The notes beneath the pieces are model-generated. The model was not told the DNA's origin. It made no database searches and worked only from the letters and a program-made list of their open reading frames with translations. The position numbers were made by a program, and so were the translations under genes. Positions 25,350-41,391 of a DNA stretch of 56,072 bases are shown one piece after another. How positions within the stretch are numbered: position 1 is the first letter of the stretch; the number at the start of each line of letters is the position of its first letter. The stretch lies in sequence record SRR20825019_2782, one strand, 5' to 3'.

Positions 25350-28013
25350 TCACTCCTCAAATACTTCGTTTACTCTATTAGGACACGTTTCACAAAATGC
25401 ATTGTGCAACTCTTTGTTATCCATCACTTGAAATGGAATCCCCAAATTTCCGTAGAATAACTTGCACCATTCCTGCGAAGAAATCCGTGACTTCGCCTCC
25501 ATAAGTAACTTTTGAAAATAAGCCTCTGTCAATACTTCAGTATGACTACTTAAATAAGACGAATGCCTATACGCAAGCGGTAGATATAGTTTCAGGACCT
25601 CGTTGTCGTACAGAAAATCTTCACAAAGATCAACTGCGAGTCCGATATTCTTAAAATAGCACAGCAGTTTTGCTAAAGAAACAGCAGATTCTGGATTCAA
25701 TTGATTCGTTCTTCGATAATATTCTACGATTTGAATCAGACTGTGATTAACTGTTTCTTGATATTCGAAAATTTGATCTGGATCAATTGTTTCACAGAGA
25801 ACATTGATAATATTGAGATTCGCCATAGCTACATTCAATTTAAACGTAGAGTCTAGGTCGTACCAATTCAGAAGTAAACTCAATCTGTCAAATGCTTTTT
25901 GAATATCTGGATTATCTGCAGTGTTATTTTGATTCTTCTTGACCTTTTCCATGAGTAAACACGCCGAGAGGTAATGAAACTCAGGGCTCAGATGCTCAGC
26001 CGCTCCACACATCGAAAATACGGACTCAACCTTCGATTCCAATTTCGCTAATTCACTCTTATTGGCTTCATCTTTCAAGATCTCATAGTGATAGAATGCC
26101 ATTTCATGCTGCAATCGATGAGACAATCCACCTTGAAATTTAGGGATTATGATTTCTAAAAAATCCTTTTCCGATAAGGTGTCCACAGTGGATAAATAAT
26201 ATGCTTTTTCATACAATCGCTCTAGTTTATCAGGATTCTTGCATTGAATATTTCCACGTTTATCTTTTTCAAAGAGATTGTTCATGTCGCGCTTAATGTA
26301 ATACAAAGCATTTCTAGGACTCAAATCTCGCACGCCTTGAATTTCTACCTTCACCCTTCTTTCCTTACTCAAGATGTCAAGTGGTCGCTCATTTTTTGTG
26401 TCAGTCAGGTATGCTACGATCTCATCTTTGGACAACGGATGTAAAAAATTCCATTTGGGATGATCTTGAACACTTGTGTAAAAATGATCCCACGCTACCT
26501 GAGAATGAACGCTATAAACGGTATCCGAATTCATAAATAATTTCAACTCAGAAAGAATGTTCTCGGCTCTTTTCTGATGTAATAGTTCATTCGTTTTAGC
26601 ATCACCTTCCACTGAGCAAAATCCCTCAATATGCACATTATAAATCGTTAGATTTTTCGCTTGGTATTTGACAATCAATTGAGTTAACTCTTTACTCGAA
26701 GTCAGTGTTTCTCCAGGTCCATAAAACACATCCACCGTATCTCTGAAATATTCCAATTCAAACGTGTATTTGTCTATAGGAATGGGAGGGTAGTACGAAA
26801 CATCGATCATTTTCAAGTCTAATTCACCGGGATAATTCGTTAAATAGACAAAGTGACAAATCTGTTTATCGTGAATATACATGAGGTTATGATTCCACCA
26901 GGTATTCATATTCTTTGGAACCTTTCCTAATCTGATCTCAAAATACTTCGCATCAAAATTTACCAGTTTGTACCTTTTAAATCGCTTGAAAAAACTTACA
27001 GAATCGGCAGTGAGCAAATACTGGACAAAATTGATGTCCTTTTTACGCTTGCGTTTTTTGAATCCTTTCATCAAGTCCTTCCGGTACACAGGCTCTAATA
27101 GTTTACCTGAGGTACGTTTCATCTGATTTCTTCGACTGGGTTCGGTATCATACGCAGGATTTCCACACCCGAACGCATCGAACGGGACTATTTCAATTGC
27201 AAAGCCATCGTGTCTATTTTTAATCAGCTCTTTTACAAAGTCCGCTTCTTCAATTCTAAGGACAAAATAGTTTCTGGAGATTCGAACAGACATTGTTGGA
27301 TAGGTTTCCCAAGTGTCCTTACACTCTTCGCATTTTTCGGTTTTATCATCTTTCAATCCAAATGGATACGATCTTTCGTATTCGACACGTGACTGCATCG
27401 CGTTCACAGAATCTTGGGTTAGCTGCGAATAGGGGAAAAAAGCCGTGCTTTCCTCAAAAGCGTACGTAAACATCACCTTAGCGAATTTTTGACAGGCGTA
27501 TATGCGTTTCTCCTTGAGATCAATTCCAATCGCTAAACCTGTCACTTGGTAGTCAGGATTGATTATGTTTTTAAAGTGACCTTTCGAGTTCACCCAAGAA
27601 TGTACCAAACTTCGCGCAATTTCAGTGTAATTATCTGTAACGAAGGTTTTTCCTTTCGACCTCACGGAGGCATTGTAATGCGTATAAACGATATTCTCTC
27701 CTACTAAATATGATTTCGGTGCGCCATAATAATTCGCGCGGTCTTGTGGAGAATAAAACTCTTTTTTTTCAACTTCTTCGTGACTTAAAACTCCTTTTGA
27801 AACAAGGTAATCGGCGTGATGATTCGAAGCAACATACAAAATTGAGTCATTGAATAACGGCACGAGATTATTTGCCAATCGTGTAGAGTCGACCAACACT
27901 TTTATTTCGTGTTCGAGCAATTTTTTATTGAAATTTGAGTCATCGATCTGTGCATGACCGACATTAAACGCTGTAAAGACAGCAAAAAACAATAAAAATC
28001 TCATTAGGCTCAT
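25350..28013 (-). CDS. Exported CAP (SCP) domain protein with a central OmpA-like segment
   Basis: Signal peptide; HADYL...SHEE...GENI...WVNSKGHFKNI CAP motifs; EGFCSVEG...NELLHQKRA OmpA-like motif. Confidence 0.75.
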   Translation of the reverse strand: MSLMRFLLFFAVFTAFNVGHAQIDDSNFNKKLLEHEIKVLVDSTRLANNLVPLFNDSILYVASNHHADYLVSKGVLSHEEVEKKEFYSPQDRANYYGAPKSYLVGENIVYTHYNASVRSKGKTFVTDNYTEIARSLVHSWVNSKGHFKNIINPDYQVTGLAIGIDLKEKRIYACQKFAKVMFTYAFEESTAFFPYSQLTQDSVNAMQSRVEYERSYPFGLKDDKTEKCEECKDTWETYPTMSVRISRNYFVLRIEEADFVKELIKNRHDGFAIEIVPFDAFGCGNPAYDTEPSRRNQMKRTSGKLLEPVYRKDLMKGFKKRKRKKDINFVQYLLTADSVSFFKRFKRYKLVNFDAKYFEIRLGKVPKNMNTWWNHNLMYIHDKQICHFVYLTNYPGELDLKMIDVSYYPPIPIDKYTFELEYFRDTVDVFYGPGETLTSSKELTQLIVKYQAKNLTIYNVHIEGFCSVEGDAKTNELLHQKRAENILSELKLFMNSDTVYSVHSQVAWDHFYTSVQDHPKWNFLHPLSKDEIVAYLTDTKNERPLDILSKERRVKVEIQGVRDLSPRNALYYIKRDMNNLFEKDKRGNIQCKNPDKLERLYEKAYYLSTVDTLSEKDFLEIIIPKFQGGLSHRLQHEMAFYHYEILKDEANKSELAKLESKVESVFSMCGAAEHLSPEFHYLSACLLMEKVKKNQNNTADNPDIQKAFDRLSLLLNWYDLDSTFKLNVAMANLNIINVLCETIDPDQIFEYQETVNHSLIQIVEYYRRTNQLNPESAVSLAKLLCYFKNIGLAVDLCEDFLYDNEVLKLYLPLAYRHSSYLSSHTEVLTEAYFQKLLMEAKSRISSQEWCKLFYGNLGIPFQVMDNKELHNAFCETCPNRVNEVFEE

Positions 28014-28046: not shown

Positions 28047-29555
28047 TCATGCCCTCAACATCTTCATCAATTCCTCATGATTGATCTTTCCATGATGTCG
28101 TCTGTCTAAGGGGATTTTTTTGAAGATCAACCTGAACGGGAAATCAAATTTTGTGTTTAATTCCGCGCGAACCTCTTCACGTTTTGCGCTATTTTCTAAT
28201 TCAATAATGATTAAAATCTCTTGTTCTCGTTTGATAATTGTCCCTCGAAGGACATTTTCTATTTGTTGAAGCTCATACTCAAACAAGAAAGGATAGATAA
28301 TTTGTCCGTTAACCTCAATGGCTTGCGTGCTTCTTCCAACCAAATACAACTGACCATTTGCATCCAAATATCCGCTATCTCCAGTGCGGTGATAAATCTT
28401 GTCTTGAGACCAAATCTTCGCGCGGAGTAATGCCTCTGGATTATTGAAATAAGACGTCAATACATGGTTTCCTGCGACGATGATTTCTCCAATTTCACCA
28501 TTATTGCAGGTTTCCAACGTTTCATTTTCTTCCAACTGAATTGCTTCGTCGCGGAAAGGAATAATTTTCACCTCCGCTGATTGATCAGGAAATCCAACGA
28601 GTAATCCTTTTTGTTTTCCTTCCGCAGAAATTAAATCGTTCACAGGAACTGCGGAAATGGGCTCCGCTTCCGTTGAGCCATAAATAATCTCCACTTTTGC
28701 TTCTGGAAATGCTTCTGCATAGCGCTTTGCTTCCTTCGGAAAAACGGGTGCTCCACCTGTGTAAATGGTCTTCAAAGAATTTACTGATTGCTTCGCTGAA
28801 ATAGAATAATTTGCAAGTACATTCACAAAAGAAGGAGACGAAATCAATTGGTTGACTTGATACTTCTTCATCAGTTCAAACACATCTTCGGGTTTAATGG
28901 AACTCAGTTTTGTTGATTTGTAGCGATAAATCACAGAAGTTGATCCAACGCCCAAATTGATGAAAAGAACAATGGGAAGAACTGGCATCACAACATCCGT
29001 GGAAGAAGGATTTATCTTCGTCCGAATTGCTTCAAATTGAGCGATCAAAAAGGCATGTGTTCTATTCGCCGCTTTTGGTGTTCCCGTACTTCCAGTTGTG
29101 AATGTGATTAAAGCAGAATGATCCAAGGAAGGATTAAACAATGAAAAATCTTTGTCAGCACGAAACGAATGCTTGATCTTAAGTCGAATTGGAATGGCTC
29201 GCAATTCTTTCGAGAAAAAACGTAAAACATGTGCTTTGGTAATGCCTATAAATCCGCGACAGTTTGCAATTTCGCAGCACATTTCCATTCTTTTTTTACT
29301 TACCCATTCGTCTAAAAAAACCGCCGTTGCTCCCATGCTAAAAAGCGCGAGCACTACTCTGTATAAATCAACGGACATTGGAATAAACACTAATACTCGA
29401 TCACTAGGGCGAATTCCCTTTGCTTCAAAATAGCGCACGGTTGCAATTACGTCTTGCTTTAAGTCAGCGTAAGAAATGGATTCATTATCCGCCACAATTG
29501 CTGTGTTGTCTGGATAATTTACCGCTGCGTTAAAGAAGTGTTGAACACAATTCAT
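28047..29555 (-). CDS. AMP-forming (ANL superfamily) ligase, OleC-like
   Basis: FTTGSTGTPK, GGAP, YGSTEAEP, HRTGDSG, and C-terminal DRRHHGKI (OleC-like D-x-RH-x-x-KI). Confidence 0.88.
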   Translation of the reverse strand: MNCVQHFFNAAVNYPDNTAIVADNESISYADLKQDVIATVRYFEAKGIRPSDRVLVFIPMSVDLYRVVLALFSMGATAVFLDEWVSKKRMEMCCEIANCRGFIGITKAHVLRFFSKELRAIPIRLKIKHSFRADKDFSLFNPSLDHSALITFTTGSTGTPKAANRTHAFLIAQFEAIRTKINPSSTDVVMPVLPIVLFINLGVGSTSVIYRYKSTKLSSIKPEDVFELMKKYQVNQLISSPSFVNVLANYSISAKQSVNSLKTIYTGGAPVFPKEAKRYAEAFPEAKVEIIYGSTEAEPISAVPVNDLISAEGKQKGLLVGFPDQSAEVKIIPFRDEAIQLEENETLETCNNGEIGEIIVAGNHVLTSYFNNPEALLRAKIWSQDKIYHRTGDSGYLDANGQLYLVGRSTQAIEVNGQIIYPFLFEYELQQIENVLRGTIIKREQEILIIIELENSAKREEVRAELNTKFDFPFRLIFKKIPLDRRHHGKINHEELMKMLRA

Positions 29556-30136
29556 TCCTTCGATTTTGATTCGATTTCCATTTTGATATTCTTTAAATTT
29601 TTCTCGAAAATCTTCTTAATCTTGAATGATGCGATGTGCATCCAGAATTGATTCCAATAGCTATCGTTTTCGGAATTAAAATAAAGTACCAATGATAGGC
29701 GTGTTGAATTTGAATTTACCTTTTCATAGCGTTGCTCTGTCTGCAATCCTTCTGCGGAAAGCGACATTTCATGGATATTGTAAATGGCTAGGGTTCTTAA
29801 TTGATTCTTTTTTACCTCCAAGATCCTTTCGTCCCAACGTGCGCCTTTCTCATTTGCTTTAACGAAAACACGTCGTTCCGAATTTACTGATCCATCCTCA
29901 AATTTCTCCTCATTTATTGGAGTAATATGATCAACATATCCAGACCAATCAGATGCGTATGATGAATTTCCCATGTATTCAAATACAACGTCGATGGGTG
30001 CCGCAAGATCTATGGTCGCTTCCACTGTTCGGAAATCATTGGTGTGTTTTTTATATGGACTGATTATCACTAAAATGATCCCCGCTAACGTTAAAATGGC
30101 AATCACATAAAGCGCTATTTTCTTCACTCTTTTCAT
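29552..30136 (-). CDS. Membrane-anchored SRPBCC/START-like protein
   Basis: N-terminal TM; IDLAAPIDVVFEY...W pattern; C-terminal helix LKNIKMEIE. Confidence 0.75.
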   Translation of the reverse strand: MKRVKKIALYVIAILTLAGIILVIISPYKKHTNDFRTVEATIDLAAPIDVVFEYMGNSSYASDWSGYVDHITPINEEKFEDGSVNSERRVFVKANEKGARWDERILEVKKNQLRTLAIYNIHEMSLSAEGLQTEQRYEKVNSNSTRLSLVLYFNSENDSYWNQFWMHIASFKIKKIFEKNLKNIKMEIESKSKE

Positions 30137-31134
30137 CTCTGGGTGACATTTTTGTTCAATAAAACGTATGTGCGAATTTTCTCTCCGTTAAATCGTTGAC
30201 TCAAATTTTTGGAAATATTGCCTTCGTGCATAAATGCGTGGATCACGGAAGTTACATTATTTTCACGTGCTTTTTTCATAAAGCGATTTCCTAAGAGTGT
30301 TCCCAGACCATTCATCCGAAACGAAGGATGTTTGGCGATTGTTTTTACAATCAATTCATTCTCTGTTGGATTTAGTTTATTTTCAAAAGCGAACAAAAAA
30401 CCAACGCATTCATTGTTTTCATTTTCTGCCAACCAAATATAGTCTTCGTTCAGCCACGTTTTCAACGGAGCATAGCTTGCAATGAATTGTTCTTCAGAAA
30501 TCTCCGAGTAAAGCACATTTTGACGAAACGCTAGCATACAGAGATCGTAAATCTTGCTCAATTCCGACTCAAATTTATTCAGATTAATCATCCGCAAGCG
30601 AATTTTTAGTTCTTCAAAATGACGTTCCAATTTCACCAAACGTTCATCGTTCGCCTCTAGCACTATGTCTTTGTAGGAATAGTACGACTGAAAAACCTGA
30701 AAATTGTTGTCAAGCCAAATTCTTGGGTAATAACTCGGATGAGGCGTCTCACTCAAAAACGGAATTCCCTGTTCTTGGATAATAAATCGATGCTCATTCC
30801 ACGTTGAGCCGTTCATTGGACCGATTAATTGATCAGTCTTCCGTTCTTTTGCATCTTCCTCGATTGCCAAAAACAATGAACTACAGTCACATTCCAACGC
30901 TTCAAAACTTCCAATGAGGAGAGTCTTTTCTTCGTCATTCGACAACGTGGGATTTTCATACATCGTTGCCGTTGCTATCACCGCACCGTTTTCAAAAAGG
31001 AAATAGCTGTTCTGCTGGTATTCTTCGAATCGCGGTAATTTATCTTGGCGCTCTACTCCATAAACTTTCTTCGTGAGCTCCAAAAACAATTCTGTCGGGA
31101 ATGCTGAATTTGAATATGTTTTTACGTTCAGCAT
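30133..31134 (-). CDS. GNAT-fold acyltransferase (two-domain, YghO-like)
   Basis: IGSFEA, LIGPMNGSTW, and C-terminal acyl-CoA motif HPSFRMNGLG...HAFMH. Confidence 0.7.
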   Translation of the reverse strand: MLNVKTYSNSAFPTELFLELTKKVYGVERQDKLPRFEEYQQNSYFLFENGAVIATATMYENPTLSNDEEKTLLIGSFEALECDCSSLFLAIEEDAKERKTDQLIGPMNGSTWNEHRFIIQEQGIPFLSETPHPSYYPRIWLDNNFQVFQSYYSYKDIVLEANDERLVKLERHFEELKIRLRMINLNKFESELSKIYDLCMLAFRQNVLYSEISEEQFIASYAPLKTWLNEDYIWLAENENNECVGFLFAFENKLNPTENELIVKTIAKHPSFRMNGLGTLLGNRFMKKARENNVTSVIHAFMHEGNISKNLSQRFNGEKIRTYVLLNKNVTQR

Positions 31135-31138
31135 TTCT

Positions 31139-31840
31139 TTAGAACGAAAAAAGAATTAGACAACCATAAACAGCGCTCGCTCCGATCAATGGAATGAATA
31201 AATTATCCAATCCGTTTCGACTAACCGCTTCCGAAATTGTCGTTAGCACTGCGATAATTAAACCACAGATCAACACTAAATGCAACGGAAAAACGATTTG
31301 AAAAGCATAAAAAGCACCGATTGAAATGCACAAAGCACTTCCAAAAAAAGCCAATGACCCAGCTACTGTTTTCGTTCCTTGACCAACTCGAAATGGAATC
31401 CAACTCCATTTTTTACCGATCAATGCTGCCAAGGGATCTGAAATCGCTAAAATCAATAATGGAAGATAATAGATTAAATATCCACCATAGAAATTGCTTT
31501 GTTTTCCGTACCAACTTTGAATTAAAAAACAACTGTAAACTGCCAATGGATAGCACAAACTTCCATAGGATTTCCGATCGATCGCGTTGATTGATTTGAG
31601 TAAGTTAAATTTTAAACTGAGGATTAAAATAATGGCAAAAGTCGCACATAGAGCTAATACAAACCAGTGATTGGTGAGAAGAACGGGAAAAAGTAAACTT
31701 AAGATTCCCGTGCCGAAATGAACCAGTTTTCGGGTCAATTCTGACTTTACTTTAAAAAAGTGATACAATACTTCAGCAACAGCGAATAGTCCTAAAAAAG
31801 CACCCGAAAGCAAAAGAGAACGAAAAATATCTTGACTCAT
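31139..31840 (-). CDS. CTP-dependent polyprenol/dolichol/phytol kinase-like membrane protein
   Basis: TRKLVH, SYGSLCYP, SDPLAALIG, KTVAGS, GLDNLFIP motifs; multi-TM. Confidence 0.82.
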   Translation of the reverse strand: MSQDIFRSLLLSGAFLGLFAVAEVLYHFFKVKSELTRKLVHFGTGILSLLFPVLLTNHWFVLALCATFAIILILSLKFNLLKSINAIDRKSYGSLCYPLAVYSCFLIQSWYGKQSNFYGGYLIYYLPLLILAISDPLAALIGKKWSWIPFRVGQGTKTVAGSLAFFGSALCISIGAFYAFQIVFPLHLVLICGLIIAVLTTISEAVSRNGLDNLFIPLIGASAVYGCLILFSF

Positions 31841-32931
31841 AGAATCGCTTTATCACAATAAAATCCCTGATAGAAAAATCCTTTATCCATCGCCGACAAT
31901 TTTTCTGAAAGCGGCTGATCGTATTTAAAATGCGTTGGCAACTGAGCACTCAATCGACGAGGCACCATTAAATTCCAATAGGCTACTTTTCCATTTTCCA
32001 ACAATCCTTCGCGCAGCTCCATTCCGATGGTCGTGAAAGTTTCAGTATTCATATATTCAAAGATATCCGAAAGGTTCATTGCATCAAACTTTCCAAAGAC
32101 ACTTATTGCCTCTTCAGCAGTACCCAGAAACAATTGAATTCGCTCCAACTGCGATTGAATTAACGTATAATTCTCTTCTTGCAAATAATATGGTAAGAGC
32201 TGACCAAAACTTCCTGTTAAGTTATATCTCAGAATAAAATTGTCTTGCGCCAGCGTGCTACTCAACTGACGGGCTGCTTTATTGAAAATAAATTCACCAA
32301 CATTCAACTTCACTTCTTTCAAGAACTCTGGATCCCTTCCTTTCTTGCCCATTATCGCCTTCGAGAAAAAGATTTTGAAAAGTAACCTCCATCGCCACGT
32401 ATTCCATTTTTGATTGTAATAGTTGATTTGCTCTTCTTCGCTCTTTTTTGCCAGGAGTTCTTCTACCCTTTTCTTGGTGTGAATAAATGGAAGAATTCTC
32501 CGGCTGAACAACTGGAAATACTTCTCAAACTTTCCATTGTGAACTACCCCATTTTCAATCAAAACATGGTTTTGTTCCCAAAAAGAAAGCGTGTTGTCGC
32601 TTAATTCGTGCTTGAAACGCTCGTAGACAGACAATCGGTTCTTGCTTTCGCTGAATCCTAAAAACGCGACAGCTTCCGCTCTCGGCAAAGACCTGATTGC
32701 AGCAATTTTTAACTCAACAAGGTACAATTGGACTGGATTCAAATCGAATGCCACAACTATTTCTGGTTGAGTTGTAAGCAATGAAAAAGAATTATCTCCA
32801 GCCGAAGCAATGGACAGAATCCGCTGGTTTACGGCTAGATTCAAACCTTTCAACAACACTTCAGGATCTTCCCAGCAATTTGCGTAGCGGATAAAATCGA
32901 GCTGAACCTTTTTTGAAATATCATCTTTCAT
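31837..32931 (-). CDS. DUF3419 / BtaA-like SAM-dependent 3-amino-3-carboxypropyl transferase
   Basis: YANCWEDP, SIASAGDN, DLNPVQ, LSDIFEYM, YWN, DKGFFY motifs. Confidence 0.82.
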   Translation of the reverse strand: MKDDISKKVQLDFIRYANCWEDPEVLLKGLNLAVNQRILSIASAGDNSFSLLTTQPEIVVAFDLNPVQLYLVELKIAAIRSLPRAEAVAFLGFSESKNRLSVYERFKHELSDNTLSFWEQNHVLIENGVVHNGKFEKYFQLFSRRILPFIHTKKRVEELLAKKSEEEQINYYNQKWNTWRWRLLFKIFFSKAIMGKKGRDPEFLKEVKLNVGEFIFNKAARQLSSTLAQDNFILRYNLTGSFGQLLPYYLQEENYTLIQSQLERIQLFLGTAEEAISVFGKFDAMNLSDIFEYMNTETFTTIGMELREGLLENGKVAYWNLMVPRRLSAQLPTHFKYDQPLSEKLSAMDKGFFYQGFYCDKAIL

Positions 32932-35494
32932 CTGCCTTCGAAATTCGTTTTACAATTCCTGTTGCGCCGTCCATTTCTACGACATCACCTGTTTTTAACG
33001 TGTCAAGCAATCCCGTTATTCCGACGATGCATGGTTTTCCCATTTCTCGGGAAACAATCGCAGAATGGCTCAATAAACTTCCTCGTTCAACTAAAATTGC
33101 CGCGGCCGTCGGGAACAATGGGACCCAACCTGGATCGGTGCTAGATGTAACCAAAATTCGTCCTTCCAAATGTTCAATTTCACTTGGGTCAAGCACTACT
33201 TGAACTTCAGCTCGAACGATGCCTGCGCAACAACCAATTCCTTTTAAGTCGCCTTCTGTTAGTGACGCATTTGCGGTCTGCGAAAAATCGTTTCCTACCT
33301 GAACATTTCCATACGTAGTGATTCTTTCACTCGTTCGCATTTGTTGTTGACTATTTTGCTCTTCCTTTCGAAGAAGAATCAGGGATTTTAAATCTATGGT
33401 GACGCTTGTTCCTTTCAAAACATCGAAAATTTCTGCTTTGGTGAGGTAAAATATATCCCGTTGCTCCTCAATGAGTTGCTCTGCTGCAAACTGTCTTCCG
33501 ATTGCCAAGAAAATTTTTCGCACCATTCCAAAACCTCGCGTGCGTTCGAATCGTAGGTTTTCTCTACCACTCACTAACGTCCGAGTTTTTCTCAGTACAT
33601 AATTAAACAGCCACTTTTTGATCCATTTCCCTTTCAATTTCTTTGATACCACTGCTTCTGCATTACTTCTCAGTTCAATCGAATGATTTTCATTGATGGC
33701 GTTCACTCCCTGCTTCACATACGACTGAACAATTTTGAGAAAAGCTGCAGGATTATCGCTGTAGGTGATCGTTTCCAATTTTAGTTCACCAACACATCGA
33801 TTCCCGAACTTATTCAAGTATGCGTCAATTTCATTGCGAACTTCTATTGAAAGTTCACCCCTTCGATTTTGAATTTCTGTTGGCGAATTGTTCAAAAACA
33901 ACTCCTTCGAAACTGGATCAATTTCAATTAATTGGGCAATTTTCACGCAGCGATGCATTGGTTCTACAGAGATAATGTCTTCGCTATTGCATAGTAAATC
34001 GTTGTGTAGATTTCCGTTTTCGTCGAGCTTATACTTTTCCGTCAGCTTTTGAAGAACTCCAAAATAGACCATTGCGTAGAAGTCATTTACGAGCGGTGCT
34101 TTCCATTTTTTGAGTAAGGTTTGTTCGAAACTGACGTATAATTCCATCAATTCAAACGCGGATTTTTGATTTAAATCAATCGCTTCGTATTCTACCATTT
34201 TCATGTTAAAATCGCGCTGAAATTTTCGACTCATCTTGGGAAGCTGTCTCAAATTTTTGAGCATGATTCGAATCATGTTGAGTACCCGTAATCGCTCCGA
34301 AAATTTAGATCGTTTTGGAAGATCTTTGAGTTCAAAACGTTCTTTTACACCCATCATTTTCTCCATGAATTCAGCATTTAGGGAATAACCAGGAAGTAAC
34401 GCTAACGCTCGGTACCAACTCAATAAATTGTAGTACACTCGACCATTCAAAAGTCCCAACATGTTCTCAAAAACGGCCGAATTATCGTTAATCGTTTTTT
34501 CGTCAACGCCCATAATTCCAGCAAACTGACGATATACTGCTTCGTAGACATCACGAATGAATGAAAAAGTCAGTGGACTCGTGATTCCCGGATAAGATTC
34601 AATGATGTTGCTACTGTCCCAAATAATGCGTTCTCCACTTGAATCTGCGAGAGAAACTGTGGTAATTGGTCGGGTTTGAAGTAAATAAAGTTCATCGTTT
34701 TTGATCGCAAATTCAATGTCTTGATACGCACCGAAATGCTCGTAAAGCTTAACAAGAAGCTCTTTAATTTCAATCAATCTCAAATCAGAAATTGCTGCTT
34801 TATTTCTTAATTCGGATGGAACCTCCACATAATAAACACCTTCATTTCCCGATTTATTAAGCACCAATTTTCGATCTTTTTCTACTAATTCGCATTGAAT
34901 TTCATTCTCTCGCGATACAGTAAAACTGTCTGCATTCAGTTCACCTGAAACAAGTCCTTCACCTAAACCGTAGGTTGCATTTACTATTATTTCAGAGCGA
35001 TTTCCCGTAACCGGATTGAATCCGAACGCCACACCTGATGCGTCGGCATCAACCATTTCCTGAACGATAATCGCAATTCCGCCAGAATCACTTAGGCCAT
35101 TTGCCTTTTTATATGCCAAAATGCGCTCCGAATAGGCCGATTTCCATACCGTTTTAAGTGCATCCGAAATTGTTTCACTATTCACGTGCAACACAGATTC
35201 AAACTGACCTGCAAAAGAAAATTGTTTTCCATCTTCGGCAAGAGCGGATGAACGCACCGCAACATTCGCTTGATCGAACGGCGCAAGAAGTTCCTTTAAA
35301 AAATTAGAATCAAAGCTGTATTCGTCAATAAATTTCTGGATTTCTAAAGGATCAAGATCAGTTGGGAGTTCTCGTTCTAACTCATCAGCAGGAAGAACCA
35401 AGAAGCTTGGGATTTTCAAATACAACGATTGTAATTCGAACAAATTATTCGCTTTCCCGCCAGTGAACTCCGTTTGTTTTGTCAAGAATTTCAT
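32921..35494 (-). CDS. PEP-utilising-enzyme family phosphotransferase with RPH/PigC-type domain order
   Basis: ATP-grasp domain (GGKA, VRSSA-ED-SFAGQ, GLGEGLVSG, DIEFA-LQTRPIT); large central domain; C-terminal His-swivel TDPGW...SHSAIVSRE; no TIM barrel. Confidence 0.9.
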   Translation of the reverse strand: MKFLTKQTEFTGGKANNLFELQSLYLKIPSFLVLPADELERELPTDLDPLEIQKFIDEYSFDSNFLKELLAPFDQANVAVRSSALAEDGKQFSFAGQFESVLHVNSETISDALKTVWKSAYSERILAYKKANGLSDSGGIAIIVQEMVDADASGVAFGFNPVTGNRSEIIVNATYGLGEGLVSGELNADSFTVSRENEIQCELVEKDRKLVLNKSGNEGVYYVEVPSELRNKAAISDLRLIEIKELLVKLYEHFGAYQDIEFAIKNDELYLLQTRPITTVSLADSSGERIIWDSSNIIESYPGITSPLTFSFIRDVYEAVYRQFAGIMGVDEKTINDNSAVFENMLGLLNGRVYYNLLSWYRALALLPGYSLNAEFMEKMMGVKERFELKDLPKRSKFSERLRVLNMIRIMLKNLRQLPKMSRKFQRDFNMKMVEYEAIDLNQKSAFELMELYVSFEQTLLKKWKAPLVNDFYAMVYFGVLQKLTEKYKLDENGNLHNDLLCNSEDIISVEPMHRCVKIAQLIEIDPVSKELFLNNSPTEIQNRRGELSIEVRNEIDAYLNKFGNRCVGELKLETITYSDNPAAFLKIVQSYVKQGVNAINENHSIELRSNAEAVVSKKLKGKWIKKWLFNYVLRKTRTLVSGRENLRFERTRGFGMVRKIFLAIGRQFAAEQLIEEQRDIFYLTKAEIFDVLKGTSVTIDLKSLILLRKEEQNSQQQMRTSERITTYGNVQVGNDFSQTANASLTEGDLKGIGCCAGIVRAEVQVVLDPSEIEHLEGRILVTSSTDPGWVPLFPTAAAILVERGSLLSHSAIVSREMGKPCIVGITGLLDTLKTGDVVEMDGATGIVKRISKADER

Positions 35495-36429
35495 AGCAGG
35501 TCTAAGAATTTAAGCAGCATGGGCACGCCGCCAAGTGTCAAGTAACTTCCAATGGTCCACAAAGCGGAACTCAATTCTAGCATTTTCGCTCCTTTTTTTG
35601 AAAACGATCGAAGAAAGAAAAACGCGGGAAGCAGACAAATCACGAAGAGAATTCCGACGATTAAATAACCGACGGTGCCAAATCCAGCGTAATACGTCGC
35701 GCACAGATTACTTGCCAACGCGATGACTAATACAAACATATACAACCAACTCGCTTTTTTCATTCCCAGCGAAGTTGAATAGGTATTGTGCTCTTCGTTT
35801 TCTGGGGATTTGATTTTTCGTCCAATTTCCAACACAATTCCGTTCATATAAGAAACAATGAAGAAAAAGATGAGTCCCGTTGGAGGATCGACATTTTCCA
35901 ATTTCCAATCGAAGCCACTTGCGTAAATGTCAATGATTGGAATGATAAACATGTGAGAAGTGATGTAGAAAAATGGATTTTTTTTCAGCCAATTCCCGAT
36001 GAAAAATTCCTTTCCCATCACAATTAAGTAGAGAATCACGGAAAGGTACATCCAGAACAAACTCTGAATAAAAAGGGCGTTGACGGCAAACTGAATTATG
36101 AAAACAATCAATCCAACTATTCCTAGCTCCTTCAGGGAAATTAATCCTCTTGGAATCGGTAAATGCGAACGAAGAACCGCATCTTCATTAGCATCTTTGA
36201 ATTCGTCAAACACACGGACCAAGAAAAACAGCGTTATCGTTGTAAAAGCGCAAAGTAAAAAATCTTGAAGCGAAATAAATCCTTCTTCACCGCGACAAAT
36301 TCTCGAATAAGAAATTGCTGAAAAACTGAACGTTGCGACGAGAACCCCGTGACTCAACGGAGGGAATCGTTCTTTCAGATAAATCCAAAATCGGCGCACA
36401 AAACTCGATTGATTCTCCGTGTTTGTCAT
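35491..36429 (-). CDS. UbiA-family prenyltransferase
   Basis: About 8 TMs; first acidic motif DEFKDANED followed by LPIPRG; second motif EIGRK...E..TYS. Confidence 0.8.
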   Translation of the reverse strand: MTNTENQSSFVRRFWIYLKERFPPLSHGVLVATFSFSAISYSRICRGEEGFISLQDFLLCAFTTITLFFLVRVFDEFKDANEDAVLRSHLPIPRGLISLKELGIVGLIVFIIQFAVNALFIQSLFWMYLSVILYLIVMGKEFFIGNWLKKNPFFYITSHMFIIPIIDIYASGFDWKLENVDPPTGLIFFFIVSYMNGIVLEIGRKIKSPENEEHNTYSTSLGMKKASWLYMFVLVIALASNLCATYYAGFGTVGYLIVGILFVICLLPAFFFLRSFSKKGAKMLELSSALWTIGSYLTLGGVPMLLKFLDLL

Positions 36430-36431
36430 TA

Positions 36432-37706
36432 TTACGATTTTCTTCCAAATTTCTTGTGAGCGCTCGCAAATTGTCCAGCAGATAAAGCCGCCGCGATTGA
36501 AAGTTCACCCGAGAGCACCAATGCTCCACAAATCTCTGCATATTTACGTGCATTTCCTGCTCCGTAACATTCCATTAATTCCAAACATTCTCGCTGTGTG
36601 GGTAAACCTGTTCCACCGCCAACCGTTCCAACCACCAGGTTTGGGAGAGTAACCGAAGCGTATAAACCGCCATTTTCCGTTAATTCCATTCGTGTGATTC
36701 CAACAGCTGCTTCCGCTACACACGCAACATCTTGTCCAGTAGCCATGAATAGAGCACACAGCCCATTCGCTACGTGTCCTTGCGCCCCAAAAGCACCACT
36801 TTGAATCACCCCGACTGTTGATGTTCGCCAATATTCCGCCATTAACTCAGGCGTCGTGCGGAGTACTTTCTCGACAATTTCTCTTTCCAAAGTTACCTCA
36901 GCCGACACTTTTTTCCCGCGTACATGGGTGAATGAACGCGCTGTGGCTTTCTTATCACCACTATAATTTCCTTCAATGAACCAAAAATTCGGTTGAATCG
37001 GTGCATTTTCAATAATGAACCTACAAATGGCCTCTGTGCACAAAGTGACCATATTTTGTCCAGCTGCATCACCCGTTTTGAACTCCATTGTTAAAATCAA
37101 ATGATTTCCTTCGATATTCGCTCCTAAATCGATCAGTTTTGCAAAACGACTATTTTCAGCAGTAATTGCCTGGAATTTTGGCATTTGTGGAATCACCCAC
37201 ACCAAAAACTTCCCTAAATCCCCCATGTCGTTAAACTTGAATACTGGACTCCGCTGCAAGGCCTCCAAATAACAAATTGACGTAATTCCTCCTGCTTTTC
37301 TCGTTGCTCTAGCTCCACGATTATAGGATGCAACTAACGCACCTTCCGAAGTCGCAAGTGGAACATAGTAATCCCCTTTTGCATCTGTTCCGATCACGTG
37401 CAACGGACCAATTACGCCAGTCGGAACCATTGTCATTCCTAAGAAATTCTCAATATTCCCTTCCAAACTTTTAATATCGGAAAATGGCTTTTTTCCTGTT
37501 AAGAACTCAAATTTCTTGCCTCTTTCTTCGAGAAAATCGATTCGTTTTTGCGTCCCTTCTACACTCGGCTTTACCTCCACTGGAATCGTACTTGCCGATT
37601 CTGAAATGGGTATTTTTTTCTTGATGGAATCAATAATCATTTCCAAGTTATGCGTACTACTTATGTGATCAAAAGCTTTCTTGGCTTCGCTATTTTCATT
37701 GGTCAT
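36432..37706 (-). CDS. Class I-type HMG-CoA reductase-like protein
   Basis: ENFLG, PLATSEGALVAS, TGDAAGQNM, GNYSGDKK, GQD, VGTVGGGT, GELS, C-terminal His (SAH). Confidence 0.9.
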   Translation of the reverse strand: MTNENSEAKKAFDHISSTHNLEMIIDSIKKKIPISESASTIPVEVKPSVEGTQKRIDFLEERGKKFEFLTGKKPFSDIKSLEGNIENFLGMTMVPTGVIGPLHVIGTDAKGDYYVPLATSEGALVASYNRGARATRKAGGITSICYLEALQRSPVFKFNDMGDLGKFLVWVIPQMPKFQAITAENSRFAKLIDLGANIEGNHLILTMEFKTGDAAGQNMVTLCTEAICRFIIENAPIQPNFWFIEGNYSGDKKATARSFTHVRGKKVSAEVTLEREIVEKVLRTTPELMAEYWRTSTVGVIQSGAFGAQGHVANGLCALFMATGQDVACVAEAAVGITRMELTENGGLYASVTLPNLVVGTVGGGTGLPTQRECLELMECYGAGNARKYAEICGALVLSGELSIAAALSAGQFASAHKKFGRKS

Positions 37707-37911: not shown

Positions 37912-38454
37912 TTGAGAATCTTAATTATATTGTCCGTTCTGTTTTTGGTTGCTATAAACACCAACTATTTTTGGAAGTATGCGCTTGGTTTAGCCGAAAT
38001 ACTGGCCTATCTCTTGCTACTAAGTGTATTTGTCTTTCTTTTAACAATGCTGATTTTACACTTCATTAAAGCAATCAAAGAAAAATTTCAATTTCGAAAA
38101 AGAAACATACTTGTAATCAGTTTAACAGCCGTCCTAGGACTAACCATCTACAAACCATTCGGATTAATTGATTTCAAACAATTTGAAGGCGCTGACTTGC
38201 TGGTTGCGAATAATGAAGGCGTCGCAAACTGTTTAACTTCTTTGCATTTGAAAGAAGATGGAATTTTCATTGAAGAAACATTTTGTTTTGGCCCAAGTAA
38301 AATATGCGGTACCTATGCGATTAAAAACGATACTATATGGTTTTCCCATAACTATGATTATTTGTATGCTACTGTGTCCAAAATGAACAACTTACATATT
38401 CTTAAACTACATCGAGAATATAAAAAAACTCCCGTCTTTTTTTATATTCTTTAG
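37912..38454 (+). CDS. Hypothetical membrane protein
   Basis: Three TMs, then a small domain with EGVANC...CFG. Confidence 0.7.
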   Translation: MRILIILSVLFLVAINTNYFWKYALGLAEILAYLLLLSVFVFLLTMLILHFIKAIKEKFQFRKRNILVISLTAVLGLTIYKPFGLIDFKQFEGADLLVANNEGVANCLTSLHLKEDGIFIEETFCFGPSKICGTYAIKNDTIWFSHNYDYLYATVSKMNNLHILKLHREYKKTPVFFYIL

Positions 38455-38509
38455 TGTTCACAGCAACAAAATCTTTACGATATTAGCACTATTAAAATTG
38501 CCCCCTCTG

Positions 38510-38932
38510 ATGACTCGTTTCTGCTCTATTTTGGTTTTCGTGCTCATTTCGGGTTGTGCTTTTAATCAAACAACGCTTTCTATTAATAATCATTCGTTTC
38601 AGATAGAGATTGAGGTGGTTGAAAATGATTGGGAATCGACGGATACGCTTTGTACATTATTCAGAATTGAAAATGGGAAACCTGTGAGCGTTTTGAAGTT
38701 CTACTCGTTTCAAGACAAGGGCGCAGATTGTAACAATGCATTTTGGTCGACAGAAAGTATGGAAATTAAAGCCGATAGTGTTTTCTTTACCACTCATTAT
38801 TTCCAAAGAACGGGTTTAGACCCAATTCCAGAATGGCGAAAACAAATTTATAAAGTGGACGAATCGGGCAAGTTTCATAAACTATACGATCGATACAAGT
38901 ACTACAATAGAAATGAATGGGTGATGGAATAA
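38510..38932 (+). CDS. Hypothetical lipoprotein
   Basis: Lipobox ISGC. Confidence 0.65.
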   Translation: MTRFCSILVFVLISGCAFNQTTLSINNHSFQIEIEVVENDWESTDTLCTLFRIENGKPVSVLKFYSFQDKGADCNNAFWSTESMEIKADSVFFTTHYFQRTGLDPIPEWRKQIYKVDESGKFHKLYDRYKYYNRNEWVME

Positions 38933-38974
38933 AGTAAACCCAAAACAAGCTAAAAACCTTATCAATTTACAGTT

Positions 38975-39532
38975 ATGCATAACAGTTCCTCAATGACCTT
39001 CGTATATAAGTACCTCTTCCCGATCTTTTTGATCGGTGGCTTCCTAATAGGCATTGTACTCGCTTGGAATAGCAGCAATTCGTTTTCCTATAATTGGTCT
39101 AGAAAGATGCTGCTCATCGTTGGTTTTGCTTCCATTTGGTTAGTAATAATGATGATGCGATTAAGGAGTGTGGAGGCAAAAACTGAGCATTTGGTTATTA
39201 AATCGGGAAGAAAACGTAAAATCGTTGAATATGAGAACATAGAGTGGATTACGCAATATGTCCTGATCAATCCCGTGATGATTTCAATGAAATACCGCGA
39301 TAAAGAAACGGGTGAATCAAAAAAGATTTTAATTCTCCCAAGCATACGTGATCAATTCTTTAAATTCAATTATTTTGGTGAACTGAAGATGACTGAATTT
39401 ATTCGGACACAAATTATAGCGAACAACTCGGGCTATTTGCAAAAAGAAGAACCTTCTCGTTGGCTTGCAGCACTTTTGATTTTTGCAACTGGTGTCCCCG
39501 TGGTAATTATCGCTGAGAGATATTTTAGTTAA
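38975..39532 (+). CDS. Hypothetical membrane protein (2 TM + PH-like soluble segment + TM)
   Basis: Hydrophobicity pattern only. Confidence 0.65.
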   Translation: MHNSSSMTFVYKYLFPIFLIGGFLIGIVLAWNSSNSFSYNWSRKMLLIVGFASIWLVIMMMRLRSVEAKTEHLVIKSGRKRKIVEYENIEWITQYVLINPVMISMKYRDKETGESKKILILPSIRDQFFKFNYFGELKMTEFIRTQIIANNSGYLQKEEPSRWLAALLIFATGVPVVIIAERYFS

Positions 39533-39577
39533 CACTTTGGGATGTATATGATTATTTCATTTCTAATTAAGCTCATT

Positions 39578-40132
39578 ATGAAATTTTGGATCATCAACAT
39601 TGCCGTTATTCTTCTTTTAGGATCATGCACTCAAACTCCCGAAAAAGAGCTAGAAACAGAAACGAAAAGCCCTCCACTTGGGTCAAATTCTACGCATCGT
39701 TCTTCATCAGGTATTAAAACAAAATTTACCCTAAATCATTCAATGCGTTATCCATATCACGAGGTAAGTATTTCAATTGAATCGCACGAAGAAGGCGCAG
39801 AAATTAATTTACATTGTGATCCCATGAAATACGACGGCAAAAAATGGACTTCCAATCCGTTAGACACTATCTACCTCATTTCGAAAAAGGAATACTATCA
39901 AATCACTCGATCCATTCGATCGATTGATGGTGGTAAAATGCTCCCCTATTTTAATACATCTGGAATGGACGGAACAGTTTGTACCCTAGAATACGGTACT
40001 TGGCAAAACTCGATCAAAATTTCAGTTTGGAGTCCTGGCTATGATACCAAAGAACGTGCGCTGGATGATTTTTTAGATGCTTGCGAAAAAATCATTAAAT
40101 CTGCCAAGTTAAATCCACGGGAGATTTTGTGA
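39578..40132 (+). CDS. Hypothetical lipoprotein
   Basis: Lipobox LGSC; GMDG...WSP motif. Confidence 0.7.
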   Translation: MKFWIINIAVILLLGSCTQTPEKELETETKSPPLGSNSTHRSSSGIKTKFTLNHSMRYPYHEVSISIESHEEGAEINLHCDPMKYDGKKWTSNPLDTIYLISKKEYYQITRSIRSIDGGKMLPYFNTSGMDGTVCTLEYGTWQNSIKISVWSPGYDTKERALDDFLDACEKIIKSAKLNPREIL

Positions 40133-40197
40133 GAAATGAAAATATGTAACGAGAAATAAATAGATTGGTTATTTCTTGAAGATTAAACGATAGTAAT

Positions 40198-40692
40198 ATG
40201 CGAACAATACCATTTTCATGCTTTGTGATTCTATTCTTTACTGGTGTATCGTGCACACGACAGGGTAAAAACGAGCAAAAGGAAAAAGAAGTTTTTCAGA
40301 TAAATATAGGTACATACTATACAAATGAGTGGAATCGAAGCGATACAGTTATTTTTAGTAAAACAAAGCCAAAATCAATCGTGCGTAACTGGAATCTACA
40401 CACTTGGGAGATTACGAAAGACTCCCTCTTTCAGCAAGACTGTCATGGTCTTAGTTCAAGTATGGGGGTAAGTAACGCCACATACACGCTTAATTTCGAC
40501 ACACTAGAGATTCAGTTCGATGGCATTGATTACGAAGGGCGTCAAGTAAACAATAACGATCCTATTATTGAAAAATATTTGATACTTCGCTCCAATGATA
40601 CTCTTCTGTCTCTAATTAGACTAGATGACAATTCACCGAATGGAAGAAGCCAAAAAACCAACAGGATTTCTGAAGAAATACGCTTGAAGTAA
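40198..40692 (+). CDS. Hypothetical lipoprotein
   Basis: Lipobox GVSC. Confidence 0.65.
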   Translation: MRTIPFSCFVILFFTGVSCTRQGKNEQKEKEVFQINIGTYYTNEWNRSDTVIFSKTKPKSIVRNWNLHTWEITKDSLFQQDCHGLSSSMGVSNATYTLNFDTLEIQFDGIDYEGRQVNNNDPIIEKYLILRSNDTLLSLIRLDDNSPNGRSQKTNRISEEIRLK

Positions 40693-40733
40693 TGTTTAAA
40701 TTCTTATCCTAGAAAAATCAATAAATTCACCCT

Positions 40734-41345: not shown

Positions 41346-41391
41346 CAAACTATACCTGAATCATTTATTAAATTCCTGACTGAAATTTAAC

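Follow-up and report, generated by a model that had tools for sequence, protein, structure and literature searches.

A patchily distributed bacterial operon that may build a polar membrane lipid on a fatty alcohol

Several described lipid pathways share individual steps with the operon reported here. The BtaA/BtaB betaine-lipid (DGTS) pathway is known from Rhodobacter and rhizobia, and a DUF3419/BtaA-family protein, like that encoded by the fourth gene of the operon (g4), would equip a lipid hydroxyl with the aminocarboxypropyl group from SAM. Phytol salvage in plants and cyanobacteria relies on the phytol kinase VTE5, the phytyl-phosphate kinase VTE6 and the UbiA-type phytyltransferase VTE2; its logic, in which a lipid alcohol becomes a phosphate and then a diphosphate before UbiA-family transfer, is common to our proposal. 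The archaeal phospholipid route also includes a UbiA-family enzyme, DGGGP synthase, followed by CarS and CDP-alcohol phosphatidyltransferases. In the bacterial ether-lipid routes of ElbD (Myxococcales) and AGPS, as cited in the portion of PMC11948995 available to us, a fatty acyl reductase provides the fatty alcohol for the ether lipid, as we propose here. The same portion of that paper (Grossi et al., ISME J 2025) describes FcrA (Pb-FcrA of Ca. Promineifilum breve; Natronomonas pharaonis), a fatty acyl-CoA reductase with an HMGR fold that derives from class-I HMGR and was first found in wax-ester synthesis. Pb-FcrA acts on acyl-CoA of at least C14 and not on HMG-CoA, and bacteria whose sole homologue is FcrA-type are described there as having no mevalonate pathway.

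The operon lies in a 56,072-nucleotide stretch of sequence record SRR20825019_2782 (hereafter the window), where eight co-oriented open reading frames (g1 to g8), all on the minus strand, occupy positions 28047-37706. From g1 to g8 the junctions are a 2-nt gap, a 4-nt overlap, an 11-nt overlap, a 4-nt overlap, a 4-nt gap and two 4-nt overlaps, exactly as listed in a first-pass annotation, and the eight genes form a real, translationally coupled operon, as that annotation had concluded. Its account of lipid-type enzymes without a PKS, NRPS or terpene synthase was also borne out. Among its family labels, Pfam confirmed HMG-CoA_red, UbiA, PPDK_N/PEP-utilizers, DUF3419, Acetyltransf_1 and AMP-binding, whereas the polyprenol kinase and SRPBCC labels are weaker than implied. 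Catalytic motifs are conserved across all families of the cassette in homologue alignments. We found no description of the cassette in the searchable literature, in line with the earlier statement that no described pathway was known to use this combination of genes.

The gene set is conserved together in other genomes, so the lack of conservation that would have refuted the first-pass annotation was not seen. We retrieved 80 loci with the DUF3419 protein, several of which end at contig ends, and looked in them for five partners that make up the core (UbiA, swivel-His dikinase, lipid-kinase-like membrane protein, GNAT and AMP-ligase). All five are present in 51 of the 80 loci and at least three in 65, while the 10 loci with none all encode distant DUF3419 proteins (26-29% identity). 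Because the full core occurs in 51/80 loci and 46 of these 51 keep the gene order and strand of the window, the arrangement exceeds chance. Cassettes occur in Bacteroidota, Melainabacteria, Kiritimatiellia, Lentisphaerae, Verrucomicrobia and Fibrobacteria, and a DUF3419 match at E<=1e-30 was detected in only 15 of 401 sampled Bacteroidota; the window operon is thus one copy of a cassette distributed patchily over several bacterial phyla. Natural fusions point to functional coupling among the partners: dikinase-BtaA in three clusters (P0009, P0010 and P0012), BtaA-tandem GNAT in seven (P0001-P0007), and ANL-UbiA in P0082, a representative of the UbiA family.

The first gene (g1, 36432-37706, 424 aa) belongs by family annotation to the HMG-CoA reductases. 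It matches PF00368 HMG-CoA_red (Pfam, E 6e-111), an archaeal HMGR is the closest to it among solved structures, and it adjoins the UbiA gene, all of which would suit a true HMG-CoA reductase supplying mevalonate to a prenylated lipid. We consider this highly unlikely. Against the NCBIfam HMGR model g1 scores 307.9 bits, under the cut-off of 441.8. In an alignment with the solved HMGRs 6hr7 and 8ecg it retains the catalytic Glu, Lys, Asp and His, as FcrA does, but three residues of the HMG-binding pocket are replaced (Ser684->Glu, Lys735->Thr and Leu862->Phe), matching all three substitutions given for the FcrA pocket in the available part of PMC11948995. The combined catalytic and substituted-pocket pattern recurs in all 41 class-I-like g1 homologues collected. 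From these residues, g1 is most likely an FcrA-type, fatty-alcohol-forming reductase and not a mevalonate enzyme. It differs from the FcrA proteins described there in its N-terminus, which carries just a short extension and neither a Lad nor an ACP domain, and in its setting within a UbiA/dikinase/BtaA-like cassette; the FcrA partners mentioned in that part of the paper are WS/DGAT, PlsC-like and AGPS only.

The mevalonate pathway was assessed in four related Bacteroidota genomes that carry the in-cluster reductase, rather than in the window's own genome. In all four, this reductase is the sole PF00368 match, and in these IspH-bearing genomes no HMG-CoA synthase was found, nor any mevalonate kinase or decarboxylase above cut-off, a background like that described for FcrA hosts in the part of PMC11948995 consulted. 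Across the five genomes searched, the MEP enzyme IspH was found in every one, HMG-CoA synthase (E<=0.001) in none, and neither mevalonate kinase nor mevalonate-diphosphate decarboxylase scored above cut-off in any. The first-pass annotation had left g1 open as an HMGR-like reducer of CoA thioesters, and had suggested mevalonate labelling; the FcrA signature and the related hosts do not support this. Because of that signature and the missing mevalonate pathway in related hosts, the chain is most likely a fatty alcohol, and the claim that the product is prenylated is not established.

On balance, we lean towards an operon whose product is a polar membrane lipid not yet described, with a fatty alcohol, and not mevalonate, as its building block; the substrates, step order and product are suggested by the chemistry of the enzyme families. 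The pathway would begin with the ANL-family adenylating enzyme (g8, 28047-29555, 502 aa), a presumed fatty acyl-CoA ligase that would convert a long-chain fatty acid to acyl-CoA. It matches AMP-binding (Pfam, E 8e-47) and scores 353 bits against PRK09274 'fatty acid CoA ligase family' (cut-off 478); alignment of 49 homologues shows conserved A3, A5 and A10 motifs. The g1 reductase would then use NADPH to produce the fatty alcohol. The two enzymes could instead serve synthesis of wax esters or another neutral storage lipid, the context in which FcrA was discovered, with the remaining genes as unrelated neighbours. This is extremely improbable given the overlapping genes and the synteny across phyla; moreover, WS/DGAT (PF03007) was found in none of five genomes, in a search that had no positive control, and fcrA often occurs without WS/DGAT according to the available part of PMC11948995. 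Compared with the ElbD and AGPS routes as presented there, the operon has a UbiA enzyme and two kinases instead of a PlsC-type acyltransferase, an AGPS-like FAD-linked oxidase and ACP, and none of its eight proteins has a Pfam match to these three domain types.

The fatty alcohol would next be converted to a monophosphate, and perhaps a diphosphate, by g5 and g3. The former (31139-31840, 233 aa) is a polytopic membrane protein of the CTP_transf_1 superfamily, presumed from weak profile matches, automatic names and fusions to be a CTP-dependent lipid-alcohol kinase of the VTE5/SEC59/DGK1-like type. The earlier label of polyprenol kinase fits its relatives better than g5 itself, which has no Pfam or NCBIfam match: 10 of the 35 proteins in the family match PF01148, the Atlas offers the names diacylglycerol/polyprenol kinase and phytol kinase (both with very high scores), and JGI names relatives, automatically, 'phytol kinase' or 'dolichol kinase'. 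The g5 model is confidently predicted (pLDDT 94.1), and its top Foldseek match, TmCdsA 4q2e, is weak (E 0.028). Fusions to CdsA-like (P0018-24) or DUF92 (P0036, P0037 and P0074) domains occur among relatives; in Flavobacterium relatives, the CdsA-like domain that Sphingobacterium-type copies encode as a separate gene is fused to the g5-like domain.

The second kinase (g3, 32921-35494, 857 aa) has the architecture of rifampin phosphotransferase (RPH) and PigC/RedH, comprising ATP-grasp, substrate and His swivel domains, and we liken its chemistry, in which ATP yields AMP and Pi and a hydrophobic substrate is phosphorylated, to that of these enzymes (as described in the part of PMC4844700 available to us). 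Pfam places PPDK_N at 75-281 (E 8.6e-61) and PEP-utilizers at 777-846 (E 1.9e-23); PEP-utilizers_C was not detected, and g3 is not a PEP synthase. Among solved chains, 5hv1 and 5fbs are the nearest (E 6e-61), and conservation across 53 homologues extends to the LSH phosphohistidine motif and to the middle domain. That middle, substrate domain is a conserved family of its own, unlike those of RPH, PigC and RedH. Scores against the NCBIfam equivalog models of all three fall far under the cut-offs, and the near-equivalog NF004881 reaches 761 bits (cut-off 883). The matches to RedH and PigC (E 3e-97 and 8e-92) and the patchy distribution suggest another reading, in which the dikinase drives a condensation by phosphorylation and the product is a small specialised metabolite such as a pigment, signal or antibiotic. 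The RedH and PigC scores are, however, a quarter of the cut-offs, the core holds two integral membrane enzymes, and no scaffold-forming enzyme is present. Phospholipid genes are also inserted in or adjacent to the cassette: Sphingobacterium-type copies carry, between g1 and g2, a CDP-alcohol phosphatidyltransferase gene as well as a second, dedicated CdsA-like gene, and in Melainabacteria the cassette neighbours an Aas-like MFS-acyltransferase-ANL protein. We therefore regard a specialised metabolite as very unlikely.

An integral membrane transferase of a divergent UbiA subfamily, g2 (35491-36429, 312 aa), would join the activated chain to an acceptor, probably in ether linkage. It matches PF01040 UbiA (48.6 bits, cut-off 34.2, E 8.5e-13), and its DExKDxxxD motif is conserved in 35 homologues, with a Glu-rich second acidic motif; a search of 1.84 billion proteins gave 177 representatives at E<=1e-30. 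NCBIfam scores lie far under cut-offs (best match PRK13592, 75.8 bits, cut-off 443), and there is a weak match to GGGP geranylgeranyltransferase (E 8e-5), reminiscent of the archaeal route, as are the Sphingobacterium-type insertions. In contrast to that route, the cassette includes no GGGP synthase, G1P dehydrogenase or prenyl diphosphate synthase (Pfam on the operon proteins and neighbourhood annotation for the last). The usual donors of UbiA enzymes are allylic prenyl diphosphates, and we know of no precedent for a saturated alkyl diphosphate in this role, which counts against the favoured reading, as does the lack of a glycerol-backbone enzyme in the cluster.

The fatty-alcohol reading must also accommodate the distribution of FcrA, which is encoded in only 28 of the 80 loci and is thus outside the universal core. 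Since it is missing from the other 52, and no PF00368 match was found in any of the six genomes searched that have FcrA-less cassettes, the cassette can work without fatty alcohol made by FcrA. The core might instead activate an isoprenoid alcohol such as phytol, geranylgeraniol or farnesol, supplied by the MEP pathway or by uptake, through a VTE5-like kinase and then the dikinase, with UbiA transferring an allylic prenyl group and FcrA a lineage-specific addition for a second chain or alternative alcohol. Besides the allylic preference of UbiA enzymes, the presence of IspH, the DUF92 fusions and the phytol and dolichol kinase names, automatic as these are, many FcrA-less loci are labelled as gut or rumen MAGs. 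We nevertheless consider this rather unlikely: no prenyl diphosphate synthase accompanies the core, and in the window and 28 loci the FcrA gene belongs to the unit, in a linkage that survives rearrangements. The reductase gene is directly upstream of the BtaA-like gene in five loci (L042, L043, L045, L060 and L063) and, as far as the incomplete locus extends, in L056; it is downstream in L061, and in L021 it lies in an inverted block. Under the preferred fatty-alcohol reading, the scheme departs from phytol salvage in that an unrelated swivel-His dikinase would take the part of the second kinase and the alcohol would probably be saturated.

The polar group would come from g4 (31837-32931, 364 aa), a BtaA-like protein and presumed SAM 3-amino-3-carboxypropyl transferase, which would add the 3-amino-3-carboxypropyl (homoserine) group. 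It matches PF11899 DUF3419 (E 9.6e-67, covering 10-382 of 385), its relatives are named 'BtaA family protein', and 47 columns, including an S-x-G-D-N stretch, are invariant in 29 homologues. In contrast to the BtaA/BtaB pathway, the acceptor is probably not diacylglycerol and Pfam detects no BtaB-type N-methyltransferase in the operon. The partner of g4 is instead a tandem GNAT (g6, 30133-31134, 333 aa), which would acylate or acetylate the amine of the homoserine group, blocking rather than methylating it. The earlier assignment of g6 to the GNAT family stands (Acetyltransf_1 at 215-301, E 4.5e-9), and Foldseek on a model with pLDDT 92.6 refines it to a tandem GNAT, with matches to 2wpw, 7q3a, MshD (1ozp/2c27) and the GlcN N-acetyltransferase 5kf1 (E 1e-14 to 1e-11). 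As these fold matches are mostly acetyltransferases, the predicted N-acyl transfer may be only N-acetyl transfer.

Lastly, g7 (29552-30136, 194 aa) is a membrane-anchored, SRPBCC-like putative lipid-binding protein that could perhaps shuttle a hydrophobic intermediate. Its Polyketide_cyc2 match (22.6 bits) is under the Pfam cut-off of 27.4, so that the SRPBCC label given previously is kept as a lead from the nearest Atlas clusters ('SRPBCC family', with a very high score). Homologues occur in only five of the 80 loci, which makes the protein an occasional accessory.

Eight open reading frames on the minus strand span positions 28047-37706 of the window, and their coordinates bear out the junctions reported in the first-pass annotation: a 2-nt gap, overlaps of 4, 11 and 4 nt, a 4-nt gap, and two further 4-nt overlaps. 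Searches against Pfam and NCBIfam recover most of the families proposed there (HMG-CoA_red, UbiA, PPDK_N with PEP-utilizers, DUF3419, GNAT and AMP-binding). The two exceptions are the fifth product, a 233-aa protein called a polyprenol kinase for which neither database gave a match of its own, and the seventh, an SRPBCC-like protein that falls below the Pfam cut-off (Polyketide_cyc2, 22.6 vs 27.4 bits) and is assigned by Atlas at 0.97 to 'SRPBCC family' clusters. Catalytic motifs are conserved within each protein family of the operon. The operon is real, widely conserved, of lipid type and uncharacterised; the enzyme families are known ones, but their combination and putative product are not.

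A ninth open reading frame on the same strand (25350-28013, 887 aa) lies 33 nt downstream and encodes a CAP/YkwD-like domain with a weak OmpA match. It was left out of the operon because the closest relative, L001, has no counterpart after its cassette. Divergent from the operon, seven consecutive small open reading frames (37912-41961, plus strand, 144-203 aa) have no Pfam match and do not resemble each other, and several have hydrophobic or lipoprotein-like N-termini. Scans for sigma-70 promoters and for terminators performed no better than shuffled sequences (35 promoter-like sites vs 33.2 expected, and 7 terminator-like sites vs 11.2 expected).

Using the DUF3419 protein as bait, we fetched 80 loci from other genomes and compared all proteins of the window to them by tblastn. 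The dikinase was matched in 65 loci, the membrane kinase-like protein in 64, the AMP-ligase in 63, the GNAT protein in 62 and the UbiA protein in 57; the reductase (28 loci) and the SRPBCC protein (5 loci) are less frequent. All five core partners, that is, UbiA, dikinase, membrane kinase-like protein, GNAT and AMP-ligase, occur together in 51/80 loci, and 46 of these 51 keep the gene order and strand of the window, so the gene set is conserved together elsewhere, a point on which the first-pass proposal could have failed. Ten loci have none of the partners, and in all ten the DUF3419 protein is a distant one (26-29% identity) of Aminicenantes/Acidobacteria type, located in a different cluster; several other partner gaps among the 80 loci are contig ends. 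According to record titles, the cassette is carried within the Bacteroidota by Crocinitomicaceae, Sphingobacterium, Parapedobacter, Saprospiraceae and Cytophagales, and outside this phylum by Melainabacteria/Gastranaerophilales, Kiritimatiellia, Lentisphaerae/Victivallis, Verrucomicrobia and Fibrobacteria. Its distribution in Bacteroidota is sporadic: a DUF3419 match at E<=1e-30 was found in 15 of 401 evenly sampled genomes, eight of them at identities of at least 38%. At E<=1e-30, the UbiA subfamily of the cassette accounts for 177 of 1.84 billion protein representatives clustered at 50% identity. In almost all arrangements, the rearranged ones of Kiritimatiellales and Verrucomicrobia among them, gene maps place UbiA and dikinase genes side by side, and the BtaA-like, kinase and GNAT genes also travel as a group.

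The first gene looks like an FcrA-type fatty acyl-CoA reductase, not an HMG-CoA reductase, judging from its active-site residues. The available text of the FcrA study describes a relative of class I HMG-CoA reductases that reduces acyl-CoA of at least C14 to the alcohol with NADPH, does not reduce HMG-CoA, and retains the catalytic residues Glu559, Lys691, Asp767 and His866 (human numbering)(PMC11948995). The HMG pocket is changed at three positions: Ser684 to Glu (in N. pharaonis), a conserved Lys to a small residue, and Leu862 to a bulky residue (PMC11948995, text available to us). We take this Lys to be Lys735; the accessible text prints Lys795, and the +51 offset between N. pharaonis residues fits 735 (PMC11948995). 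The product of the first gene matches PF00368, and phmmer alignment to the solved HMG-CoA reductases of Methanothermococcus (6hr7) and Arabidopsis (8ecg) shows that all four catalytic residues are kept, in the stretches tsEGalvas, gDKKa, tGQDva and saHkk. At positions 684/735/862 the same alignment gives Glu, Thr and Phe, vs Ser, Lys and Leu in both reference enzymes. We therefore rejected a true HMG-CoA reductase, since the HMG-binding Ser684, Lys735 and Leu862 are all replaced and the score is under the NCBIfam TIGR00533 cut-off (307.9 vs 441.8 bits). The pattern of Glu/Asp, non-Lys and Phe/Tyr was observed in 41/41 class-I-like homologues from cassette loci and an order-level genome sample.

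The genomic setting was checked by proxy, in four related Bacteroidota genomes that carry the cassette, which stand in for the host of the window. In each of them the reductase of the cassette is the sole PF00368 match, and the MEP-pathway enzyme IspH was found as well. These four genomes gave no mevalonate-diphosphate decarboxylase or mevalonate kinase above cut-off, and no HMG-CoA synthase match at E<=0.001, with a control that was matched in four known genomes.

Other FcrA-like genes are not followed by a UbiA gene (L088, L089, L091, L092 and L093); Glu559 is replaced by Gln in the first four, as is His866 in L093. In L094 (343-2736, minus strand) an FcrA-like domain with pocket residues Asp, Asn and Phe shares a single 798-aa open frame with a C-terminal part that we take, from an H-x-D-x4-N motif read by eye, to be APH/choline-kinase-like. 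An apparent fusion of FcrA to a BtaA-like protein (P0011) was set aside as a probable frameshift or gene-calling artefact: the alignment ends at residue 387, a low-complexity linker follows, and the catalytic His is missing.

The second gene product exceeds the PF01040 cut-off (48.6 vs 34.2 bits). It conserves DExKDxxxD, the first Asp-rich motif being a mark of the UbiA prenyltransferase superfamily, and its second motif is Glu-rich and atypical. The third product combines an ATP-grasp domain (PPDK_N) with a phosphohistidine swivel domain and, by Pfam, is without the PEP/pyruvate TIM-barrel domain; 53 homologues conserve its LSH motif. Among solved structures, 5hv1 and 5fbs lie closest to it, and we take both to be Listeria rifampin phosphotransferase. 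This phosphotransferase is described, in the available text, as a three-domain enzyme with an ATP to AMP + Pi mechanism (PMC4844700). Assignment as an orthologue of RPH, PigC or RedH was rejected on the NCBIfam equivalog cut-offs (286.9 vs 999, 308.5 vs 1300 and 326.6 vs 1350 bits, respectively), and the protein comes close to the cut-off of an NCBIfam model called 'phosphoenolpyruvate synthase' (761 vs 883 bits). The fourth product matches DUF3419 (PF11899) over its full length (10-382 of 385, E 9.6e-67). BtaA systems that give DGTS pair BtaA with BtaB; here, a protein with a BtaA-family domain occurs without such a partner, as no domain of a BtaB-type N-methyltransferase was detected by Pfam or NCBIfam in any of the eight products.

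For the fifth product, PF01148 is matched by 10/35 of its relatives, and the structural model has TmCdsA as its top Foldseek match, a weak one (E 0.028). Atlas and JGI name its relatives diacylglycerol/polyprenol, phytol or dolichol kinase, and these names point to a putative CTP_transf_1 superfamily member of the VTE5/SEC59/DGK1 lipid kinase type. Such kinases have the membrane fold of this superfamily without the C-terminal signature of CdsA. Relatives are also fused to DUF92 (P0036, P0037 and P0074) or, in the Flavobacterium proteins P0018-P0024, to the CdsA-like domain of Sphingobacterium-type cassettes; a true CdsA-like gene coexists with the kinase-like gene in, or fused to, some cassettes. 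In Melainabacteria and PVC-type cassettes the kinase-like protein reaches 371-470 aa through a hydrophobic, multi-helix C-terminal extension (A2 alignment columns ~290-580) that has no Pfam match.

In the 333-aa sixth product, the GNAT match from Pfam lies in the C-terminal half, and the model of this protein (pLDDT 92.6) contains two GNAT folds in one chain. Foldseek matches to 2wpw, 7q3a, 1ozp and 5kf1 (E 3.5e-14 to 1e-11) indicate a fold resembling MshD, the clavulanate tandem GNAT and GlcN N-acetyltransferase. The eighth product has intact ANL motifs, and its closest model is the 'fatty acid CoA ligase family'.

Gene context points to a membrane lipid as the type of product. In five Sphingobacterium species (L007, L009, L010, L011 and L065) a CDP-alcohol phosphatidyltransferase gene and a CdsA-like gene are inserted between the reductase and UbiA genes (193 and 236 aa, respectively, at L007 3071-4366), and crude gene maps place a homologous pair in L012 and L013, both MAG loci. 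The CdsA-like gene in the cassette of S. micropteri is a second copy besides the housekeeping CdsA. Melainabacteria cassettes adjoin an Aas-like gene: in L033 (12647-16120, minus strand) and 12 other loci of this type, a convergent gene for a 1157-aa MFS, acyltransferase and AMP-binding protein (Aas/LplT-like) directly follows the cassette. Natural fusions join the dikinase to the BtaA-like protein in three clusters from different phyla, and the BtaA-like protein to the tandem GNAT in seven clusters. For UbiA, a first search found no fusion among longer proteins, and an exhaustive search gave one, the ANL-UbiA representative P0082, whose junction is seamless. The candidate P0136 (UbiA with a dikinase fragment) was rejected, as it looks like a frameshift or gene-calling artefact, as P0011 does. 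PF07993 was discarded as a marker since it was matched in every genome and every control, and a WS/DGAT profile search gave no match, as did its positive control.

For this window, the most economical reading of the family chemistry is a fatty-alcohol route. The gene layout, its conservation and the residue signature of FcrA are observed, and each substrate and the order of the steps are deduced. The ligase would convert a fatty acid to acyl-CoA, which the FcrA-type reductase would reduce to a fatty alcohol. The membrane kinase-like protein and the dikinase may turn this alcohol into an alkyl phosphate, perhaps an alkyl diphosphate, and the UbiA enzyme would transfer the alkyl chain to an acceptor. 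The BtaA-like protein would then add an aminocarboxypropyl head group derived from SAM, which the tandem GNAT might N-acylate or N-acetylate, with the SRPBCC protein as an occasional lipid carrier. The proposed sequence of alcohol, phosphate(s) and UbiA transfer runs parallel to plant phytol salvage, the enzymes of which are VTE5, VTE6 and VTE2. Likewise, the Sphingobacterium variant parallels the archaeal lipid logic of DGGGPS, CarS and CDP-alcohol transferase.

Several points count against the fatty-alcohol reading. The reductase is absent from 52/80 loci, and PF00368 genes were found in none of the six genomes with FcrA-less cassettes (6/6), so another alcohol, perhaps isoprenoid, can serve the core. 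As a UbiA donor, a saturated alkyl diphosphate would be unusual, and the cassette contains no glycerol-backbone enzyme. Because of these points we retain as the main rival that the core cassette uses an isoprenoid alcohol, which is favoured both by the non-universal reductase and by the usual donors of UbiA enzymes.

Beyond the fatty-alcohol route of this window, it is conceivable, if rather unlikely, that the cassette as a whole represents a new bacterial ether-lipid route from an alcohol through an alkyl diphosphate and UbiA alkyl transfer to a SAM-derived head group, N-acylated homoserine. Gut lineages without FcrA would start from a salvaged isoprenoid alcohol, for instance phytol, and the others from a fatty alcohol. 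A CTP-dependent kinase and the swivel-His dikinase would make the alkyl diphosphate, and the UbiA-family enzyme would take the alkyl donor. The product would belong to a class of aminolipids that are ether-linked and poor in phosphorus, and its synthesis would require neither AGPS, PlsA/R or ElbD nor archaeal enzymes.

No description of the cassette was found in open-access papers and preprints, in agreement with the first-pass statement that no described pathway is known to use this combination of genes. In its available text, the FcrA study proposes ether-lipid roles for some FcrA via PlsC-like or AGPS partners, and by occurrence counts the words 'prenyltransferase' and 'UbiA' do not appear there (PMC11948995); the accessible text of PMC13001223 mentions neither FcrA nor the cassette. 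If the proposed lipid reading holds, a lipid pathway common to lineages from Bacteroidota through gut Melainabacteria and Kiritimatiellia is absent from lipidomic and genomic schemes, FcrA has a second, widespread role besides the wax esters to which it has so far been tied, and an explanation might be at hand for some of the non-isoprenoid ether lipids that lack an assigned producer. The labels 'HMG-CoA reductase' and 'phosphoenolpyruvate synthase' on these genes would mislead metabolic reconstructions, the first towards a mevalonate step and the second towards a gluconeogenic enzyme. As the cassette is compact (9.7 kb) and present in cultivable Sphingobacterium species, the question is directly testable.

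DUF3419 proteins also occur in other gene settings. A different cluster in Aminicenantes/Acidobacteria MAGs (L069-L080, e.g. L069 6298-13835 and L078 10228-13863) contains genes for a DAGK_cat/YegS lipid kinase, a PEMT-DUF3419 fusion (~612 aa), a 371-aa GNAT, an Orn/DAP-type PLP decarboxylase, a class II aldolase-like protein and a MacB/FtsX permease. A 727-aa open reading frame of L078 was dropped, as its frame differs from that of the DUF3419 match and it has no Pfam match. A variant without UbiA, membrane kinase and FcrA, found in MAGs titled 'Ruminococcus' (L064 2011-11888 and L066), holds an APH-family kinase, a GNAT, a PP-loop-like protein, the dikinase, the BtaA-like protein and two AMP-ligases.
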